DNA from: Candidatus Omnitrophota bacterium | GTDB taxonomy: Bacteria; Omnitrophota; Gorgyraeia; Zapsychrales; JANLHA01 | Assembly: GCA_020632555.1 (NCBI GenBank) | Contig: JACKFI010000001.1 | Span: 1,750 to 65,749, forward strand | Direction: 5' to 3' | Length of the DNA: 64,000 nucleotides | Shown here: positions 4,132-58,491 of the stretch, in pieces | Position numbering within the stretch: the stretch's first letter is position 1 | Layout of the letters: every line of letters starts with the position of its first letter | Notes under the pieces: model-generated | What the model saw: the letters and a program-made list of their open reading frames with translations, nothing else | The model's database searches: none | What the model was told of the DNA's origin: nothing | Position numbers and translations under genes: made by a program

Positions 4132-4170
4132 GTATACATTTAAAAGGCCATCGGCCTTTTAAATGTATAC
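4132..4170 (-). terminator. Perfect 18-bp hairpin immediately 3' of tRNA-Gln
   Basis: GTATACATTTAAAAGGCC-atc-GGCCTTTTAAATGTATAC abuts the tRNA 3' end. There is no clear U-tract after it, so terminator function is inferred only. Confidence 0.4.
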
Positions 4171-4241
4171 TGCCCAGCCAGGGCTCGAACCTGGAAAACG
4201 AGATCCAAATTCTCGTGTGTTACCAATTACACCACCGGGCA
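4171..4241 (-). tRNA. tRNA-Gln (anticodon UUG)
   Basis: The reverse complement folds by hand into a 71-nt cloverleaf: acceptor TGCCCGG/CTGGGCA, D stem GTGT/ACAC, anticodon stem CGAGA/TCTCG with loop ATTTGGA, T arm CCAGG-TTCGAGC-CCTGG. CCA is not encoded. G at position 37 is slightly unusual. Confidence 0.8.
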
Positions 4242-4273: not shown

Positions 4274-4356
4274 AGTTGACTTGAAAATTCTTTTTAAGCG
4301 AATAGCGCCATAGAGGCGCCAAACAATTGAGCCATAAAAGGATTTTCAAGTCAACT
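4274..4356 (-). repeat. X element copy 1: conserved 36-nt core inside a locus-specific 15-bp stem
   Basis: Arms AGTTGACTTGAAAAT (4274..4288) and ATTTTCAAGTCAACT (4342..4356) are perfectly complementary. On the minus strand the core reads GGCTCAATTGTTTGGCGCCTCTATGGCGCTATTCGC, identical to copy 2. Confidence 0.85.
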
Positions 4357-9116: not shown

Positions 9117-9317
9117 AAAATTTTATCCCAAATTTTGCATTACAACACAGTGCACGACGATAAGTTGCTCACAAAAAAGTGAAATGCAAAATTTGCCTTC
9201 GGTTGCGGATTCCCGCAAGGATTAACCCCGCACGTCTCGTTTTTGTCGAGACATGCGGCCCTTTGGGCGAGTTTTGCTTGGCCTCGCAAAGGCGAGACTA
9301 ATGCAAAATCCGGGTTT
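9117..9317 (-). repeat. Y element copy 1 (hairpin repeat) carrying a nested 117-nt insertion
   Basis: It is the reverse complement of 36148..36229 except for extra sequence between two copies of AATGCAAAAT (9183..9192 and 9300..9309). It abuts the stop codon of the TlpA-like gene. Confidence 0.8.
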
Positions 9318-10280: not shown

Positions 10281-10349
10281 CAGAGTCTAACCCCTATCCC
10301 CCAACCACTAACCCCAACGTCTAGCGTCTAGCTTCCCACCCCTAATCCC
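10281..10349. repeat. W repeat copy (CTAACCCC/TAGTCCC-type low-complexity element)
   Basis: CAGAGTCTAACCCCTATCCCCCAACCACTAACCCCAACGTCTAGCGTCTAGC... is related, in reverse complement, to 44509..44546 and 44770..44817. It overlaps the 3' end of the pgeF-like ORF. Confidence 0.7.
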
Positions 10350-11060: not shown

Positions 11061-12207
11061 GCAAAGCCTCCGCCTTTAAATCAATCGCCGCAAAATCTGT
11101 TTGCGTGACGGCAGGATTACCTTGCTTATATTCTTCAATTTGCCGAATTTTCGTATCCAACTGCACAAAGTTCTTGGTCTTAATATCTGCATAAAGCAAA
11201 TTGAGTTTCTCGACCTGTTTCCCCAACTCATCGTCAAACCGTCCTTTAAAACGATCGTACAAACCAATAAACTGTTCAATCAAACCAATGATTTTGCGAA
11301 TATCATTTTCATAGCGAAAATTCTCATGCGCCTGTCGAATCACCGACAGCATAGCATACAGCGTAAACGGCGAACACAAAACAACTTTGTCGCGCAAAGC
11401 TTCTGTCATCAAATCTGGCAAGTTCTCTTGAATAAACCCAAAAACTTGTTCATTGGGAATAAACAATAATACAAAATCCAGCGTGTTCTCGGCTGGATTA
11501 ATATAATTGCGGTTTTGAATTTCTTTAACGCGATCTTTGACATTTTTAAGAAACTCTTTGAGAGCAGCAGTGCGCTCCAAGCCTTCTGGCAAATTGACCA
11601 TCTTCATATAATTATCCAACGGAAATTTAGCATCCATATTCACCCGCTGATGATTAGGGAGAAAAAACGCATAATCTGGTTTAGTCGTCGCACTGTCTTG
11701 CTGCTTTTGCTTTTCGTAATTAATACCTTCCATCAAGCCAGCATAACGAATAATATCTTCGGCCATGCGCTCTCCCCATTGCCCGCGCAATTTGACATTG
11801 CCAAGGATATTATTCAAATGATTGGTGGTGTCCTGCAGACGCGCCGTCGCCAAAGAAGCATTTTTTAATTCATTTTCCAGTTGACCATATTTAACCGAGC
11901 GGTCTTGTTCAAAATCACGCACCTGTTTTTGATATTGCGCCAATTCCTCTTTAAGCTGTGTGACCCACGATTCAACCGCTTGCTTGCGAACTTCCAATTC
12001 CCCAGAAGCTTTGCTCTGTTCTGTTTTAAATTGCTGTCCGGCCAAAAGCAAAAACTGTTCTTGATTGGCTTTCATCTGCTGAGCAATCCGTTCTTCAAAA
12101 AAAGCAACCTGAGCTTGACTCTGCGATTGCAAAACCTTTTGCAAAACAAAGACAAACACAATCAAAACAAACACGATGCCAACAATTCCGACAATCAAGA
12201 ACTCCAT
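11050..12207 (-). CDS. rmuC: DNA recombination protein RmuC
   Basis: 385 aa with an N-terminal TM segment, a long coiled coil and an RmuC-type C-terminal nuclease-like region (DFVLLFIPNEQVF). Confidence 0.85.
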   Translation of the reverse strand: MEFLIVGIVGIVFVLIVFVFVLQKVLQSQSQAQVAFFEERIAQQMKANQEQFLLLAGQQFKTEQSKASGELEVRKQAVESWVTQLKEELAQYQKQVRDFEQDRSVKYGQLENELKNASLATARLQDTTNHLNNILGNVKLRGQWGERMAEDIIRYAGLMEGINYEKQKQQDSATTKPDYAFFLPNHQRVNMDAKFPLDNYMKMVNLPEGLERTAALKEFLKNVKDRVKEIQNRNYINPAENTLDFVLLFIPNEQVFGFIQENLPDLMTEALRDKVVLCSPFTLYAMLSVIRQAHENFRYENDIRKIIGLIEQFIGLYDRFKGRFDDELGKQVEKLNLLYADIKTKNFVQLDTKIRQIEEYKQGNPAVTQTDFAAIDLKAEALRES

Positions 12208-12257
12208 AAAAACACCCTTTCTATTATTCTAGCAAGGAGCTACAGCAAGAGAACAAC

Positions 12258-12336
12258 GAGTTGCATATTGAGTTTTTCGGCTCAATTGTTTGGCGCCTCT
12301 ATGGCGCTATTCGCCTAAAAACTCAATATGCAACTC
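12258..12336 (+). repeat. X element copy 2: conserved core inside a perfect 20-bp locus-specific stem
   Basis: GAGTTGCATATTGAGTTTTT, core CGGCTCAATTGTTTGGCGCCTCTATGGCGCTATTCGCC, then AAAAACTCAATATGCAACTC. It lies 5 nt from the dinB stop. Confidence 0.9.
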
Positions 12337-12341
12337 GCCAC

Positions 12342-13502
12342 CTACATCTTTCCACGTCCAATAGCTTGCTCACCAAACTTATTTTTTATCACATCGACAA
12401 CGCTATGAATTTTCTCGCGTCGTTCATTGACCGGATAACTAAACAAACTTTCTTGCACATAATCATCAGCGAAATTATTAACCTTAACTCCAATCAAACG
12501 AATTTTCATCCCTGGTTTAAAGAACTTTTTGAATATGTCTTTAGACACTGCAAAAATGATATCAGAAAAATTAGTCCGCTCTCCCAAAGTCTGCGCACGA
12601 GTGTACGTCTGAAATCCATGCAGACGTATTTTAACCGTGATGGTCTTACCTTTCAAGCTGTACTTTCGCAGTCGCCGCGAAACCTGCTGAGCCAAATCCA
12701 GCATCCTTGCCAAAACCTCCTCGCCGTCAGTGGTGTCTTTTTCAAAAGTATGCTCATGGCTAACCGACTTGATATCTGTTTGCTCAACAACTTCCCGCTG
12801 ATCAATGCCATGAGACAAATTGAAAAAATGTTCTCCGGTCTCGCCAAAATGATTATGCAACTGCTCCCGTGACATTCGCGCCAAATCTCCAATGGTTTGA
12901 ATATCCCAACGATGCAAAACTTCTGCTGCCTTAGGCCCCACACCCCACAACCGCTCAATTTTCAGCGGATGAAGAAAGCCTTGAACTTCCTTTTCTAAAA
13001 CCTCTAACAAACCATCTGGTTTTGATAAATCAGAAGCAATCTTAGCAACAAACTTCACCGGCGCAATACCAACCGACGCCGTTAATCCAACGTCCTGCCG
13101 AATCTTTTCTTTTAAACGTTGAGCGGCAAAAACAGCACCGCCGAATAAATGCGCGCTGGTGGTCATATCCAAAAACGCTTCATCAATACTCAGCCCTTCA
13201 ATGTGGGGAGTGAAGTCATAAAAAATTTTAAAAACCGCCCGCGATGCTTCACTGTATTTTTGAAAATTGGGCGACAGAAAGATAGCTGTTGGGCACAGTT
13301 GATAGGCTTTGGAAACCGGCATTGCGCTATGAATGCCAAACGTGCGAGCTTCATAAGAACAGGTCGAAACAACCCCGCGGCCACGACCTGCTTTGGGATC
13401 GGCGCCAATCACAACCGGCTTACCACGCAAATGCGGATGATCCCTTTGCTCAACTGCAGCAAAGAAAGCATCGAGATCAACATGCATAATTATTTTCATC
13501 AT
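12342..13502 (-). CDS. dinB: DNA polymerase IV
   Basis: HVDLDAFFAAVEQ and SIDEAFLD Y-family polymerase motifs. The ORF-track start 13514 is TTG; ATG at 13502/13499 is more likely. Confidence 0.9.
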   Translation of the reverse strand: MMKIIMHVDLDAFFAAVEQRDHPHLRGKPVVIGADPKAGRGRGVVSTCSYEARTFGIHSAMPVSKAYQLCPTAIFLSPNFQKYSEASRAVFKIFYDFTPHIEGLSIDEAFLDMTTSAHLFGGAVFAAQRLKEKIRQDVGLTASVGIAPVKFVAKIASDLSKPDGLLEVLEKEVQGFLHPLKIERLWGVGPKAAEVLHRWDIQTIGDLARMSREQLHNHFGETGEHFFNLSHGIDQREVVEQTDIKSVSHEHTFEKDTTDGEEVLARMLDLAQQVSRRLRKYSLKGKTITVKIRLHGFQTYTRAQTLGERTNFSDIIFAVSKDIFKKFFKPGMKIRLIGVKVNNFADDYVQESLFSYPVNERREKIHSVVDVIKNKFGEQAIGRGKM

Positions 13503-16692: not shown

Positions 16693-16768
16693 TGTCATTG
16701 CGAAGCCGTCAGGCCGAAGCAATCTTATCTTAAGATTGCCGCGTCGCCTTTGGCTCCTCGCAATGACA
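16693..16768. repeat. Z element copy 1 (76-nt foldback: TGTCATTGCGA...TCGCAATGACA)
   Basis: Terminal inverted repeats plus an inner hairpin GCAATCTT-atct-TAAGATTGC. Intergenic. Overlapping ORF-track ORFs on both strands are artefacts of the repeat. Confidence 0.85.
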
Positions 16769-18456: not shown

Positions 18457-19269
18457 TTATCGCAATTGATTTTGGTCTAAAAACTGTTCCATCGCCGGCA
18501 AAAAGACATCTTTCGATTCCGAATACGCCTGCGCATGACTACCGGAAATTCGTAAAAACCTCTTGGGCTCAGGCGCCACTGCAAAAAGTTTCTGACCCAA
18601 ACGAAACGGGACTGTTTGGTCATCGAAGCTATGAATAAATAATTTGGGGACCTTAATTTCTTTAATCTTTTTGACATTATCCAACTGTGCTGTCAAAAGA
18701 AAAGACGGAACAAAAGGAACAATCGTCTGAGCCATATCCACAGCATTGGTCCAGGTCGAATCGGCAATCAAAGCGCTCACCATCCGTTGGGACACAAGGT
18801 CAATAGCCGCGACCCCACCCATCGATGCGCCATAAACAACAAATCGATCCTTAGCAATATCTTCACGGTTAACCAAATAATCATAGGCCGCCAAAGCATC
18901 CTGATACATTCCATTTTCGGTCGGACGCCCTTGGCTTTTTCCAAAACCGCGATAATCAAAAATAAAAACATTAACACCCAAATGATGAAAATCCCGAATC
19001 TTTTCGACACGATCACCGATATTGCCAGCATTGCCATGACAATACAAAATAGTCGCTGCTGTTTCTGGCGCCACCGCGCTTTTGATCAGCCATCCATTTA
19101 ATCGAACATGATCTTGGGTCACAAAATAAATATCTTCAAAATCAAGTCCTGCTTGGCTTGGAGTCAATGCAATATCGTGAGAAGGAACAAATAAACTCGA
19201 AGCCTCAAGAAAACGCACGTAAATAATAAAAACAACACATCCGCAAAAGATATAAATCAAAAACTTCAT
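18457..19269 (-). CDS. Alpha/beta hydrolase, membrane-anchored
   Basis: HGNAGN oxyanion-type motif and nucleophile elbow GASMGG, with an N-terminal TM segment. Confidence 0.75.
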   Translation of the reverse strand: MKFLIYIFCGCVVFIIYVRFLEASSLFVPSHDIALTPSQAGLDFEDIYFVTQDHVRLNGWLIKSAVAPETAATILYCHGNAGNIGDRVEKIRDFHHLGVNVFIFDYRGFGKSQGRPTENGMYQDALAAYDYLVNREDIAKDRFVVYGASMGGVAAIDLVSQRMVSALIADSTWTNAVDMAQTIVPFVPSFLLTAQLDNVKKIKEIKVPKLFIHSFDDQTVPFRLGQKLFAVAPEPKRFLRISGSHAQAYSESKDVFLPAMEQFLDQNQLR

Positions 19270-21298: not shown

Positions 21299-21326
21299 TG
21301 TAAACTCCCTCTGCCCTCTCTTAGAA

Positions 21327-22508
21327 TCAAGAAGAGGAATTAAATGATTTGACTCGCGCGATAATTCTTTTGACCCCTTCAATAAAAACGCTCTCGGGTG
21401 GCAAAAGACTTAAGATTAAAAATGACTCTTCACTAAAATTAAAGAAATAACCCGGATGCACATACACTTGATCGCGTAACAATAACCGCTCAGCTAGCGC
21501 TTCCTCATCAACCCCTCCCAACAACTTCACAATCATATACCATCCGCCATCAGCATGCAAAACTGTTCCAGCATCATAATTCGCAAAACTGTTAATCAGA
21601 TAATCTCGATTTACCGCAACACGTCTGATAATTTGTTCTTGAATCGCCGGCCGATAATTCATCCACGCAGCTAAAGCATTTTGTACCGGAGCATTCACAG
21701 AAAGATACGTGTCGGCAATAATTTCTAACCGCGCAATCGCGTCCGCAACAATGTCCGTCGGCCCATTAACCACAATCCATGATAATTTCATTTGCGGCAA
21801 AGCCAATGTTTTAGAAAGCCCCCCCAACGTAAAGGTCAAATTGTCTGTATTCGCCGCACACGACACAAAACGCTGAGAAGAATCAAAAGCATAATCAAAA
21901 AAGACTTCATCGCTGATCAAAGCCAACTGATTCTGCTGACACATTCGATTCAAATGCTTTAGTTCTTCCCTCGTGATATAAGAACCTGTCGGATTATTAG
22001 GATTAACGGCAACCACCGCCTTGGTTTGTACCGAAATATGGTTCTCTAACTCTCCTAAGTCAATCGCCCATTGCCCTTGATACACTAAAGAATAAAAACT
22101 GCTTTTCAAATCATTCAAATCCACCAAGAAATCAAACAAAGGATAACTGGGCGCGGGGAAAAGAATCTCTTCCTGCGGATTCGCTAATAATCGAAAAAGA
22201 AAAGAATACGCTTCGGATGTACTGGCCGTTAAAAAAATCTGTTGTGGTGAAATTGCAATATTCTGGCTTTGATAATACGCCGCCACCGCTTGACGCGCCG
22301 ACAAAAGTCCTTGTGACGATGGAACATACCGCATACTAGCGGGCATAGACAGAAGCGCCAAAAGCTCATCCTGCGGATACACAAATCCACAACACGTCGG
22401 GTTTGACTGTGTCAAATCCAGAATCTTTTGTCCGCTGCTTTTATAACCTTCAAGAATACCCGCCACGCGATTTGGCGTCAATTCCCAATTCGTTCGTTTT
22501 GCAAACAT
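21327..22508 (-). CDS. Class I/II PLP-dependent aminotransferase
   Basis: 393 aa with NPNNPTG and a GGLSKT...P..K PLP-lysine region. Confidence 0.8.
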   Translation of the reverse strand: MFAKRTNWELTPNRVAGILEGYKSSGQKILDLTQSNPTCCGFVYPQDELLALLSMPASMRYVPSSQGLLSARQAVAAYYQSQNIAISPQQIFLTASTSEAYSFLFRLLANPQEEILFPAPSYPLFDFLVDLNDLKSSFYSLVYQGQWAIDLGELENHISVQTKAVVAVNPNNPTGSYITREELKHLNRMCQQNQLALISDEVFFDYAFDSSQRFVSCAANTDNLTFTLGGLSKTLALPQMKLSWIVVNGPTDIVADAIARLEIIADTYLSVNAPVQNALAAWMNYRPAIQEQIIRRVAVNRDYLINSFANYDAGTVLHADGGWYMIVKLLGGVDEEALAERLLLRDQVYVHPGYFFNFSEESFLILSLLPPESVFIEGVKRIIARVKSFNSSS

Positions 22509-36147: not shown

Positions 36148-36229
36148 AAACCCGGATTTTGCATTTCACTTTTTTGTGAGCAACGTATCATCGCGCTCTG
36201 TGCTGTAATGCAAAATTTGGGATAAAAAT
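36148..36229 (+). repeat. Y element copy 2 (uninterrupted hairpin repeat)
   Basis: CCCGGATTTTGCATT (36151..36165) pairs with AATGCAAAATTTGGG (36207..36221): 13 Watson-Crick pairs plus 2 G-T pairs on the + strand only. Confidence 0.85.
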
Positions 36230-43200: not shown

Positions 43201-45323
43201 AAATACATTTCATAGAGGGCCTGCTGCAAAACACTCTGAGCATAAGATCTATCTTGACCACTGAGACTGTTTAAATCCGGTTTTGTTTTTGCTAATTCTG
43301 CAAACAATGCATCCGCTTGGTCAATAACATTATCCCTCGCACTGGATGTTTCTGTTTTAAACTGTGACGAAATTGTTTCTCGTAAATCATTATTGTGCGC
43401 AGCCATTTGTGAAATTTGATCTTCAACAATCTCTTGAGTAAACTTACTCAGCGCATCCCAAATCTCTCCGGCACCAAATTCTAAATACATTTGGGGTGTC
43501 CACTCTGCCAGCAAGGTTAAATTGCTTATATCCGGTCTATATTTATCTAAAAGATTACGGTGCTGATTTATAAATTCTGCCTGTTGCTCTAAAGTCAATA
43601 CGCGTTGGGCTGCTTGAACAACTTCCAATGGAGCTTTAGCATTCCATTGTTCTGGATTTTTAATACGAGAAGCTTCTGGTTCAACTGCCAAGACATCATA
43701 ATATTGCGCGAATTTATCGTATCCATCAGTTAACATTTGCTTTATGTGCTCTATGCCAGCCTCATTGGTTTTATTAACATAATTTGCCAATGTATCAAAA
43801 TACTCCATTATGCTCTTCTGCTCCTGAGCACTACTATGCTTGTACAATAATGATTGCTCGACTTTCATCTTCATATATTCAACACTAATATCTGACAAAC
43901 CATCCCTCAAATTGTACCAATACGCCTCAAATCGTTGATAAACCTTTTCAATCCGGGATTCTTGCAAACGATCAACGGCATTCTCAAAATCCTCAACATT
44001 TTTTTCAAAGTTTTTAACCGTGCTGGAAGAGACGGCAGCAAGTTGATCTGCTTCAGCATTGGGTTCCCCCAACTGAATTGTGGCAGCGTGAATTCCAGAG
44101 CTGGCGGATAATGTTCTTTCTGTTTGTAGTGGAGACCCAGCGATAATTCTTAATACTCCTGCAGTCTGACCTAACATTTCAATCCCGCCTGAGAAATACT
44201 TGCGCGGAATCAGGTCACCAGCTGCGTCAACTTCTTCTTTAATCAAATTGTAAGCACCTTTCTTAAAGGCGGCTAAGTACTGTTCATAAATGTGCTGCTT
44301 CATCTCTTTATCGTCGGTTTCAACACCAGCGACTTTACCTTGATCAGCATACACTTTGCCCAGCAAACTTTCTTTCAAAGCTTTTTTGTACCATGCGGCT
44401 AAAATGACGGAATTATAAATCTGACGCACATCGGCGAAATCTTTGCTTTCGTTGACGGCTTTGTCGATGGCAGGCAAAATGGTTTGGCGGAAGATATTAG
44501 TTGAATTATTAGGGACTAGGGGTTGGGAGTTGGGGGTTAGAGACTGACCGGTGGATGTGTCATTGCGAGCGACCAAAGGAAGCGAAGCAATCTCTGCTTT
44601 CGAGATTGCCGCGTCGCCCTGCGGGCTTCTCGCAATGACAGTGCTTTTTGTGACTGTTTCATAGTCCTCTGCGAGCATAACCTGCAACCGTTTTTCGCCA
44701 ACCAAAACAATGCCATTGCTTTCTAACACTTCGGCTTTGACAGGCATGATCCAAACTTTGTTCAACTGGTTAGGGACTAGAGGCTGGGGGTTAGGGGTTA
44801 GAGAGCGTCTAGCGTCCACTGTCTGCGCAGCATTGACCTGATCCCAATATTTTTTTCCCAAATCTGTTTCGGGATTGGTTAAGGAAGCTGCCATTTGTTT
44901 CAGCACATAATCCTGCTCCAACATGGTCTTGCCCATGGTCGTTTGGCCTAAGACGTCGGGAATAATGCGATCTTTTTCATATGGGGAAAGATTCACCCAA
45001 ACTTCTTTATCGGGAATGGTTAAAGCGGCTAGGAAATATTTGACTAACTTTTCGGTTTCACTTTTGAGTTCTTCACCTGAAAGTTTGGATTGACCTTGAT
45101 CAACAATAAAATCAAATAAAAGCGGGTTTTCAGGATGAACTTTAAGCCCCAGCAAAATAGGCGGTTGGAACCCCGTCGTCAAGGTCACCGGACTGTTGAG
45201 AACTGGTAAGATCTGCGCACCGGCTGGAGCAACAATCAAGGAAGAAATAAAACTCACCAAAATCACACTGCACGTCAATTTTTTATAAAATCTTAAAGAC
45301 CAACGACAAAAAAGACCCTTCAT
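40206..45323 (-). CDS. Very large secreted protein P2 (1705 aa), unknown family; paralog of P1
   Basis: Uninterrupted ORF. AAGGGGGAG RBS before ATG 45323 and a signal-like N-terminus (VILVSFISSLIVAPAGAQ). Shares N- and C-terminal modules with P1. Carries in-frame copies of the Z and W repeats. Confidence 0.85.
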   Translation of the reverse strand: MKGLFCRWSLRFYKKLTCSVILVSFISSLIVAPAGAQILPVLNSPVTLTTGFQPPILLGLKVHPENPLLFDFIVDQGQSKLSGEELKSETEKLVKYFLAALTIPDKEVWVNLSPYEKDRIIPDVLGQTTMGKTMLEQDYVLKQMAASLTNPETDLGKKYWDQVNAAQTVDARRSLTPNPQPLVPNQLNKVWIMPVKAEVLESNGIVLVGEKRLQVMLAEDYETVTKSTVIARSPQGDAAISKAEIASLPLVARNDTSTGQSLTPNSQPLVPNNSTNIFRQTILPAIDKAVNESKDFADVRQIYNSVILAAWYKKALKESLLGKVYADQGKVAGVETDDKEMKQHIYEQYLAAFKKGAYNLIKEEVDAAGDLIPRKYFSGGIEMLGQTAGVLRIIAGSPLQTERTLSASSGIHAATIQLGEPNAEADQLAAVSSSTVKNFEKNVEDFENAVDRLQESRIEKVYQRFEAYWYNLRDGLSDISVEYMKMKVEQSLLYKHSSAQEQKSIMEYFDTLANYVNKTNEAGIEHIKQMLTDGYDKFAQYYDVLAVEPEASRIKNPEQWNAKAPLEVVQAAQRVLTLEQQAEFINQHRNLLDKYRPDISNLTLLAEWTPQMYLEFGAGEIWDALSKFTQEIVEDQISQMAAHNNDLRETISSQFKTETSSARDNVIDQADALFAELAKTKPDLNSLSGQDRSYAQSVLQQALYEMYLQVWAQPGGSIEDIMQDTLDQSTIDAIKPNFRVTKEEMSGILASLDLTNGIPGEIIKPLLEKTLKQFAASSALDALNRAIAEKNLFRVNGSNNIKSGDIDDKNQYEARLYRDSSKNDFTVVKLFSHESTLIGFAILEGNFVTASPEELMAKYQQSQAVASSTIDNLIEQMRLQAAEELRAVNGLPADASQVAVVQAVLGKDAAGQNIELVEMYYEGLVDKAVEPLQKKQIVQSRHGLDQAVDQLMALGETDRKSAMQTARQQLPIDAQWIDLAEDGIQRMAAYYQEFEELDRKDALQKARNGGANNTARNQAGSVYRGDELNRLLTEYNQFGKEAEQWGQAQVQFYLNKNANGELLAVVSQDEKRVGIHLGLDGGLANTNTVVQEFINRGRDYFVDHQPLDNTLDAVVGSIQDLALWRMLGTFGDQSASSALGQKLAEDLNPVELEAAWTAYIVKQTETFPGINEPGGLELYQPLLNLFTAQVKYALLNDRSLRPVFMQRLPGSSVGQLQVLESNKDLVQQKIGNMTILELMQKYLSFRVGSTKTALEVVAHSELKEEIVIAVTDRYYEKAKFKVANGRRVYFPLEDGTFLTTLGSGQNIGGTFQEIPYYFRDEPGEPQLWVGLLSELEAQAAESSAEALRNSEQLFNQFLGYVRVFEVPDGEGNFVSTKDMKHPDGQLFNPVISFERVLSAQRWAKVDQIWANDPRFEVSRRSLSRVLSNLGMVQPGTVLSVKELMLMAMRTRGQAEAVKLNKRLFKATINIQDLTLLTGQESDNQEIRNLNDYLDLLATEKTTEKDIDLVRQYGISTAGLYVSLGLLRHFVNLPNYVKYGELYPTAEDALRELFRSYFGAIESPKDLQVWATSVKVKGSDRPLPLRNNDQLEGFHYSRILKWAREALDERFPEFAAADVAANETVASAPVGGIDFDPTNMNLQIKRDGKGVPLPLPQQNLEQINIQGLFPIIINIVPINAQTLPIFLGQAPKEPAKEAELAANLAS
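44509..44546. repeat. W repeat copy inside the P2 coding sequence (encodes SLTPNSQPLVPN)
   Basis: TTAGGGACTAGGGGTTGGGAGTTGGGGGTTAGAGACTG, a direct repeat of 44770..44807 located 261 nt (87 codons) away. Confidence 0.8.
44558..44640. repeat. Z element copy 2, in frame inside P2 (encodes TVIARSPQGDAAISKAEIASLPLVARND)
   Basis: It has the same termini (TGTCATTGCGA / TCGCAATGACA) and inner GCAATCT...AGATTGC hairpin as the intergenic copies. The frame check (45323-44639 divisible by 3) confirms the reading frame continues through it. Confidence 0.85.
44770..44817. repeat. W repeat copy inside the P2 coding sequence (encodes SLTPNPQPLVPN)
   Basis: TTAGGGACTAGAGGCTGGGGGTTAGGGGTTAGAGAGCGTCTAGCGTCC. 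The CGTCTAGCGTC tail also occurs at 10319..10332. Confidence 0.8.
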
Positions 45324-45986: not shown

Positions 45987-46284
45987 CCCCGCGCGGGGAG
46001 AGTTAGGGTGGGGCAGTTAAATTTCACCCTCCCCTAACCCCTCCCATCAAGGGAGGGGAATTGATACTGTGGCGCTTGCAGCACCACAGTATTTCGCCTC
46101 GCGCGTGGAACTTATACTGTGGTGGCTACGCCAAAAACCAATAGGGAATTCATACTGTGGCGCTTGCAGCACCACAGTATTTCGCCTCGCGTAAAGAAGC
46201 AAAACTAGTGGAACTTATACTGTGGTGGCTGCGCCGCCACAGTATTCACTCGCAGGTAAGGAAGCAAAATCAAGACCTGCGAGT
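45987..46284. repeat. Dense array of palindromes/hairpins (REP/BIME-like), not CRISPR
   Basis: CCCCGCGCGGGG (45987..45998); CCCCTCCC-atcaa-GGGAGGGG (46038..46058); ATACTGTGGCGCTTGCAGCACCACAGTAT at 46064..46092 and 46152..46180; ATACTGTGGTGGCT half-copy at 46114..46127; full ATACTGTGGTGGCTGCGCCGCCACAGTAT at 46217..46245; ACTCGCAGG...CCTGCGAGT at 46248..46284. Confidence 0.85.
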
Positions 46285-58406: not shown

Positions 58407-58491
58407 AGCTGATCCAGCAAGCCCTTTTTCGGCTCAATTGTTTGGCGCCTCTATGGCGCAATTCGCCTTAAAAGGACTTGCTGAATCAGCT
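58407..58491 (+). repeat. X element copy 3: conserved core inside a 22-23 bp locus-specific stem
   Basis: AGCTGATCCAGCAAGCCCTTTTT, core CGGCTCAATTGTTTGGCGCCTCTATGGCGCAATTCGCC, then TTAAAAGGACTTGCTGAATCAGCT. The two arm mismatches are C-A on the + strand, which is G-U on the - strand. Confidence 0.9.

Follow-up and report, generated by a model that had tools for sequence, protein, structure and literature searches.

The X element is a hairpin-forming repeat of ~95-100 bp that is confined to a narrow Omnitrophota clade; each copy consists of arms of ~20-24 bp, joined by a short T/A junction to an apical module of 37 nt. Its arms drift at about the neutral rate yet stay complementary, and the apical module is nearly constant. 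Gain and loss affect the hairpin as a whole, and copies then persist between housekeeping genes at sites that are orthologous across genomes. The element is of the same kind as the small intergenic palindromic repeats (PMC3184786, PMC3116915). Judged from its sequence, and with moderate confidence, the X element may best be seen as a REP/MITE-like foldback with an invariant tip that a putative factor would read as a single strand, either ssDNA or RNA, and with a stem that would serve only to pair.

Three copies lie in the window, the 64-kb stretch of DNA that was analysed (Table 1). The 36-nt core GGCTCAATTGTTTGGCGCCTCTATGGCGCWATTCGC is found at 4298-4333 (-), 12279-12314 (+) and 58431-58466 (+), two copies being identical and one having a T->A substitution, and the number expected by chance is 0 (100 shuffles of the sequence). 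A sequence scan thus bore out the positions, the orientations and the single substitution given in the original prediction, and the inner GCGCC/GGCGC hairpin, the T-run and A-run and the complementary arms that it described are all present. The 36-nt core occurs as described there, but the conserved unit is 37 nt long, with GGC...GCC closing a 3-bp helix; in copy 2, this module reads GGCGAAUAGCGCCAUAGAGGCGCCAAACAAUUGAGCC as the minus strand. Each core sits inside a long inverted repeat (inverted-repeat pairs I11 and I17), and the hairpins fold with z = -8 to -10.7 against shuffled sequence on both strands. A covariance model (R1) run over the window returned the three known copies and no others.

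Table 1. Positions of the X element in the window, and loci where it is present in some genomes and absent from others.
Feature	Position	Strand	Context or sequence	Filled	Empty
Copy 1, whole hairpin	4274..4356	+	between ispE-like gene (stop 4397) and tRNA (4170-4241, minus)
Copy 1, 37-nt core	4297-4333	minus, in the orientation written in the original prediction
Copy 2, whole hairpin	12257..12337	-	between dinB (stop 12342) and rmuC (start 12207)
Copy 2, 37-nt apical module	12279..12315	+	GGC / TCAATTGTTT / GGCGCC-TCTAT-GGCGC / TATTC / GCC
Copy 3, whole hairpin	58407..58491	-	between NlpC/P60 gene (stop 58513) and PPK2 (start 58363)
Copy 3, 37-nt core	58431-58467	+
dinB-rmuC site				window, L081, L078/L079, L080, L074, L017/L066/L037	L075 (12-nt spacer)
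NlpC/P60-PPK2 site				window, L082	L083, L084 (11-12-nt spacers)
ispE-tRNA site				window, L033	L074, L076
Window ~21.3 kb site	21325..21356			L049, L060	window (neither core nor arms)

The ORFs adjoining the three copies are all on the minus strand, and the genes downstream are the tRNA, RmuC and PPK2. The distances from stop codon to hairpin (5, 21 and 40 nt) and the domains of the upstream ORFs (IMS/DinB; NlpC/P60 with SH3_6; GHMP-kinase, ispE-like) agree with the earlier placement of the hairpins 5-40 nt after the minus-strand stops of ispE, dinB and NlpC/P60. When copy 1 is folded, the plus strand forms a continuous 21-bp stem with a U-G pair, and the minus strand has an A-C mismatch at that point. 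Its wobble-pairing strand is therefore the plus strand, antisense to the flanking genes, and its polarity relative to transcription is opposite to that of copies 2 and 3. Copy 2 has a perfect stem of 21-25 bp with arms (GAGTTGCATATTGAG) unlike the family consensus. In copy 3, folding confirmed the earlier observation that both arm mismatches are C-A on the plus strand and G-U on the minus strand.

Aligned on their T and A runs, ~70 copies give the arm consensus …(A)AGTTTAGCCGATTTGGAAAKTCC-TTTTT(C)-[core]-(C)TTAAAA-GGAYTTCCAAATCGGCTAAACTT…, or in shorter form …GCCGATTTGGAAATCC-TTTTT-[core]-AAAA-GGATTTCCAAATCGGC…, with conservation declining from the centre outward. Ungapped stems have a mean length of ~21 bp including the T/A run, and the arms are complementary in every complete copy. 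The earlier impression that the arms are unrelated between loci does not hold: copies 1 and 3 carry diverged variants of the family consensus, and copy 2 is the sole true outlier, with arms that it has in common, allowing for drift, with its orthologues in other genomes. The arm consensus was never found without the core in the sequence collected at that stage of the analysis.

Within the core, position 30 (window 12308, 58460 and 4304) is T or A about equally, with one C (L080) and no G at all. Orthologues disagree there in 25% of pairs, a faster rate than that of the flanks, and the allele is unlinked to core orientation. Several candidate features of the hairpin were rejected. A helix AAUW/AAUU within the core is broken by variable position 30 in half of the copies, its columns are invariant, and the variant core of L077 disrupts it without compensation. 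A small ORF across the hairpin (ATG…TGA in CAATTGA) meets an in-frame TAG before the core in many copies, and arm indels shift its frame. Look-alikes of a k-turn, loop E, hammerhead or CsrA site were checked by eye in the core, and none fits.

Across 682 kb from at least 8 related Omnitrophota genomes, 84 copies were counted, a figure that admits cores with at most 6 differences and includes syntenic loci reached via flanking proteins. A scan of one genome per species gave 67 loci (70 matches) in 5 related MAGs, four of them labelled Planctomycetales and one Omnitrophota; DinB homologues put the window in Omnitrophota. The loci from this genome scan amount to ~9-25 exact-pattern loci per MAG, and a scan of JGI metagenomes added only six. 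Core divergence is bimodal in Hamming scans, with matches at 0-4 mismatches and none at 5-11. The covariance model found nothing on two related 21-kb syntenic segments. Neither the viral contigs scanned for the core nor the plasmid and phage collections searched for the element gave a match, and a viral, plasmid or phage origin was rejected on these grounds. When Rfam 15 was run over the window, the sole match at the gathering score was a tRNA, and the element matched no family; in permissive mode, it drew only generic miRNA-precursor hairpins far under threshold (e.g. 32.6 bits vs a gathering score of 89). No description of the X element was found in Rfam, the plasmid and phage collections or the literature searched.

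In one metagenome population, the four to five copies occupy different loci and all share a G14T core variant and near-consensus arms, which suggests that a burst of amplification may have occurred recently. Neighbouring copies share a CC core variant. Given these shared variants, the constancy of the core could in part be due to gene conversion among copies. An unrelated 39-kb metagenome contig carries TCAATTGTTCAGCGCCATAGAGGCGCAATTG (L073:4383-4412), a look-alike that lacks arms and has its inner loop reversed; it is probably a chance palindrome. The X repeat breaks metagenome assemblies of its clade: many contigs, from several assemblers, end within the element (L007, L016, L040, L044, L047, L054, L055, L071, L078, L079 and L081), and the overlap between L054 and L055 is exactly 55 nt and spans the core. 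Heterogeneity in orientation could contribute to these breaks.

At four loci, some genomes carry the element and others lack it, and no hairpin is present in the empty alleles. At the dinB-rmuC site, the core has the same orientation as in the window in L081, L078/L079 and L080, and is inverted in L074 and L017/L066/L037. The original prediction had proposed comparing orthologous sites that lack the core; no stems are present there, the spacers being 11-12 nt long and free of hairpins. Because the arm consensus never occurs without the core and the empty sites are hairpin-less, the unit that is mobile, or gained and lost, is the whole ~95-bp foldback. The arms thus largely prove to be part of a longer conserved unit, an outcome that had been named in advance as telling against the insertion of a core into existing hairpins. 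Filled and empty orthologous spacers are too diverged for insertion boundaries or a target-site duplication to be placed, and a TA at both ends of the element is indistinguishable from the palindrome itself.

Other small palindromes are found in the same kinds of spacer. A second small-hairpin family (GTCATTGCGAGC… / GTCATTCCCGC…GCGGGAATCC) lies at 16733-16768 and 44558-44593 in the window and at L076:11160-11275, L077:11230-11270 and L065:964-1108. In L076 and L077, the dinB-rmuC spacer is occupied by other small hairpin repeats, and since this second family fills the spacer that elsewhere holds the X element, such spacers are hot spots for small palindromic insertions. A different foldback of ~125 nt with 22-bp arms (GCTGGGATGTCATGGTGTCCCG…) is present at L043:1428-1552, in a spacer where L002 and L024 carry the X element. 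The only decayed copy seen, CGCTCAATTCTTTCGCTCCGGGGATGAATTCGC at L024:5416-5466, is a relic that resembles a degraded core and lacks complementary arms, core and pairing having been lost together; L002 and L043 both carry the element at this site.

The window also holds repeats of other kinds. A 72-nt sequence occurs twice, inverted, with 93% identity (9121-9192, plus; 36156-36227, minus); the first copy is interrupted by a hairpin-rich insertion of ~108 nt (9193-9299) ahead of the shared tail AATGCAAAATCCGGGTTTATT, and this repeat is neither a tRNA nor a member of any Rfam family. Four to five tandem hairpin units of ~48 nt (ATACTGTGG…CCACAGTAT) lie at 46055-46256, in two sub-types whose stems differ by compensated changes. 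G-rich intergenic repeats of the GGGGTTAGGGG / CCCCTAACCCC type are found at 10286-10315 and 44509-44804, and in L074 at ~18990-19080.

The two parts of the X element evolve very differently. Over 24 orthologue pairs, differences per site were 0.009 in the core (excluding the T/A-variable position 30, where the value was 0.25), 0.124 in the arms and 0.104 in the flanks, so that the core changes ~10x more slowly than arms or flanks. It is intact in both orientation classes. Between orthologues, 12 double changes that preserve a pair were seen vs 39 single changes. In an ungapped alignment of 45 copies, double changes occur in 21 of the 25 pairs of the closing helix; cells with a double change number 307 vs 86 ± 8 in shuffles, and the covariation score is 0.559 vs 0.144 when shuffled and at most 0.132 with slid partners. 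Most stem positions have 3-5 pair types. The proportion of paired cells in this alignment (94.8%) is inflated by the selection of the 45 copies for ungapped pairing; the covariation measures are not.

The dinB locus illustrates this process. Across five lineages, its arms read GAGTTGCATATTGAG, GAGTTTATGATTGAG, AGACTTGGTATTGAG, GATTTTAATATTGAG and GAGTTGATATTGAG; they drift, but remain paired in every lineage for which both arms could be compared. L017 (GAGTTG-ATATTGAG) and the window (GAGTTGCATATTGAG) differ by a one-base insertion that is matched in the opposite arm. Since arms can drift in this way with pairing kept, old copies can lose all likeness to the consensus, and there is no need for cores to have homed into foreign hairpins. 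Of the two readings in the original prediction, that of a structured RNA with a covarying closing helix and a conserved loop stands as far as the structure goes, given the double changes, the covariation score and the slow core. As a simple cis-acting 3' UTR RNA it does not stand, because the folded strand is set by the core and both orientations are equally represented.

A further feature is the polarity of the G·U/G·T wobble pairs, which a transition mismatch in the stem can form on one strand or the other. At stem positions 1-19, wobble-type mismatches lie on the strand complementary to the written core in 66-71 cases vs 11-14 on the other, spread over many positions. Among inner-stem mismatches flanked by Watson-Crick pairs only, the same strand is favoured by 38 vs 2, and this bias is found both where the core runs with the genes (17:2) and where it runs against them (21:0). 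When the core was replaced by a tetraloop, so that the arms alone were folded, the complement-of-core strand was the more stable in 61 of 71 hairpins (p = 5e-10) by a mean of 3.6 kcal/mol (-3.6), with splits of 19:1 for written cores running with the flanking genes and 20:4 for those against. The closing helix is paired at 95.0% on the complement-of-core strand and 90.9% on the other, and GU pairs in stem columns 5-20 of the 45-copy alignments number 52 vs 10. Even mismatches that differ between orthologues have the bias (22 vs 8, p = 0.016).

Gene direction has no such effect. Inner-stem wobbles divide 23 vs 17 between gene-sense and antisense strands, which is not significant, and the core has the same direction as the flanking gene in 26 cases and the opposite direction in 28. 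A strand bias of the 38 vs 2 type rules out strand-symmetric mutation or conversion as its source, and the direction of transcription or replication cannot cause it, because core orientation is unrelated to gene direction. The polarity must then come from the element itself, with one specific strand probably being read in folded form.

In the preferred reading, a sequence-specific trans-acting factor would recognise the apical module on a folded single strand, and the stem would need only to pair. The strand read would be the complement of the core as written, fixed by the module and not by the direction of the flanking genes, which points to folded ssDNA or an operon-independent RNA rather than a co-transcribed terminator. 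Recognition may thus be of folded ssDNA, like that of REP hairpins with tyrosine transposases, or of an RNA made independently of the host operon. The lack of a conserved promoter or flank motif counts against an autonomous RNA: no conserved promoter, terminator or flank motif for such a transcript was found, and no flank column is informative. A candidate leader outside the arms was rejected, as its ATGYGCAAGTT tail is present in just 9 of 73 copies. Arm complementarity, the compensatory insertion and the inversions of the module would most simply arise from strand-switching between the arms during replication, and selection would remove non-wobble mismatches from the stem.

An unlikely alternative, though one that draws on several observations, is a co-transcribed 3'-end RNA hairpin that acts as a terminator, RNase III site or 3' exonuclease block, as has been reported for REP, ERIC, Correia and bcr1 repeats. 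RNA folds of the element are very stable (-35 to -52 kcal/mol, z about -8), copies occur within operons such as pyrR-pyrB-pyrC and proC-yggS, and co-transcription, with effects on mRNA stability, is known for repeats of the MITE type (PMC3184786). The hairpin base also lies a median of ~20 nt past the upstream stop codon; as a sign of function this was discounted, because the original spacers are 11-60 nt long and any insertion lands near a stop. Against this alternative, related genomes make do with spacers of 11-12 nt at the same junctions. The G+C-rich stem with a small loop, followed at once by a U-tract, that marks an intrinsic terminator is not what the X element presents: its T and A runs are stem-internal, and in neither direction is the 3' arm followed by a T-run. 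A terminator scan of 12100-12500 found 0 sites, and simple scans found neither a sigma-70 promoter nor an intrinsic terminator. The wobble bias tracks the core and not the gene strand, there is no preferred orientation to the genes, and stem function alone leaves the invariant 37-nt tip unexplained. A plain role as terminator or stabiliser is at odds with the absence of a U-tract, with a polarity that ignores orientation and with a tip that does not vary.

Inversion of the core in place is seen in 12 of the 33 orthologue pairs in which both flanks could be aligned. Clear flips are seen between L018 and L050 and between the window and L082, where the arms and flanks are the same and the core is reversed together with its junction bases. 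The flip in L082 left the arm wobbles on the gene-sense strand, which is the outcome predicted for switch points within the arms. Template switching between the arms of an inverted repeat homogenises the arms and inverts the spacer, and can make compensatory changes in one step (PMC8604942, PMC8794818). For the X element, it accounts for the flips, the paired insertion and part of the upkeep of the arms, but not for the frozen core or the strand bias. The quasipalindromes that evolve by template switching resemble the X element in their inversions and paired one-base insertion; unlike it, they reflect a mutational mechanism and not an element family.

These flips raise the question of whether the module is a switch, one that works in operon mRNA solely where transcription yields the 'folded' sense of the tip, with frequent strand-switch inversion of the tip and inner stem turning each locus on and off, so that assemblies would catch either state. 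We consider this quite unlikely. The proportion of inverted pairs is near the 50% expected at equilibrium, cores flip while arms and flanks stay, the core is intact in both states and the inner-stem wobble bias moves with it; on the other hand, the bias of outer-stem wobbles to the gene-sense strand that a switch predicts was rejected, as a loose count of 33 vs 16 became 7 vs 7 when only Watson-Crick-flanked mismatches were taken. Many contigs break within the element, which a repeated 37-55-mer explains equally well. An invertase is absent, and each locus has its own inverted repeats. In invertons, an invertase recognises conserved inverted repeats around a promoter-bearing segment of at least ~100 bp; the segment flipped in the X element is ~37-49 bp long and has no promoter-like site. 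It is similarly doubtful that a 37-nt strand-specific RNA or ssDNA module, flipped in place at high frequency via its own variable arms, would act as a miniature invertible switch and let dozens of housekeeping operon junctions toggle between 'read' and 'unread' states with no need of a site-specific recombinase. If rapid inversion does occur, the orientation argument against a role in mRNA is weakened.

It is improbable that the X element is a functionless, decaying MITE with a palindrome kept perfect by arm-to-arm template switching alone. Both the in-place inversions and the compensatory one-base insertion that separates L017 from the window are known results of that process, and an armless core relic is present in L024. 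Against this, the core changes ~10x more slowly than its flanks in situ, hardly any decayed cores exist, and a strong strand-specific wobble bias is impossible from strand-symmetric conversion.

The other reading in the original prediction, in which a mobile core of ~37-49 nt would enter, one way round or the other, the loops of terminator hairpins that were already there, is very improbable and is not supported by the evidence. In its favour, the core is identical across loci, its orientation varies between orthologues with the same arms, and some arms are unrelated to the consensus and even without T/A runs (for example copy 2, L002, L011/L023, L024 and L043). Against it, most arms follow a consensus that was seen only together with the core, hairpins are absent from three orthologous empty sites, and the compensated drift over five lineages at the dinB locus shows how old copies can lose their resemblance.

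Among known systems, the preferred reading finds a close counterpart in the REP and REPIN elements of Enterobacteria and Pseudomonas, whose hairpins are recognised strand-specifically, as folded single strands, by RAYT tyrosine transposases. REPs are imperfect palindromes, 20-40 nt long, in which the stem and a 5' GTAG-type tetranucleotide are conserved, and the cognate RAYT gene is typically flanked by copies. The X element is like REPs and REPINs in being a short intergenic palindrome present in tens of copies, in either orientation to genes, with long persistence at orthologous sites, and the wobble bias found in both gene contexts suggests that it may also have their folded-strand specificity independent of gene orientation. 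However, REPs combine a conserved stem and 5' tetranucleotide with a free loop, whereas in the X element the stem sequence is free and the conserved part is the 37-nt tip. Copy number is below that of REPs and REPINs, the latter being miniature mobile DNA (PMC3116915). In the sampled loci, copies were not seen on both sides of any RAYT-like gene; the genes bracketed by two copies there (proC, pyrB/pyrC and phosphorylases) are housekeeping genes and not transposases, which counts against the classic REP/RAYT arrangement.

Integron attC sites are also recombined as folded single-stranded hairpins, strand-selectively and with structure conserved more than sequence. Their plan is the reverse of that of the X element, with conserved R and L boxes at the stem base and a variable tip, and they form cassette arrays beside an integrase, whereas X copies are scattered among core housekeeping genes. 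Neither R''/L'' and L'/R' boxes at the stem base, nor a variable tip, nor arrays by intI are features of the X element.

To our knowledge, neither a strand-specific wobble bias nor in-place inversion has been reported for MITE-type foldback families. MITEs have target-site duplications and conserved terminal inverted repeats that they share with a parent IS, whereas the termini of the X element are its least conserved part, and no parent IS was seen in 682 kb. Correia/NEMIS, ERIC and bcr1 are intergenic foldbacks of ~100-150 bp that are co-transcribed with their neighbours; bcr1 has compensatory changes that preserve RNA structure, and Correia has a central site for protein binding (IHF) (PMC3184786). 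The presence or absence of MITE-type foldbacks varies between relatives (PMC3184786), and the X element is polymorphic for presence of the whole unit at 4 loci.

In summary, three differences set the X element apart from other small palindromic repeats: reversed conservation, a strand bias defined by the element and in-place flips. Such repeats are usually recognised via conserved stems or ends, and the X family reverses this plan: its 37-nt tip is frozen, while the stem drifts freely and yet is always paired. The family offers a clean natural dataset for telling selection on structure from the repair of hairpins by template switching. On the sequence patterns described here, the family implies a putative Omnitrophota factor that would read one particular hairpin tip, as DNA or as RNA. 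If inversion is not fast, the X element is still a useful, unannotated repeat family that disrupts the metagenome assemblies of its clade; if it is fast, the element would represent a new way of varying operon expression.
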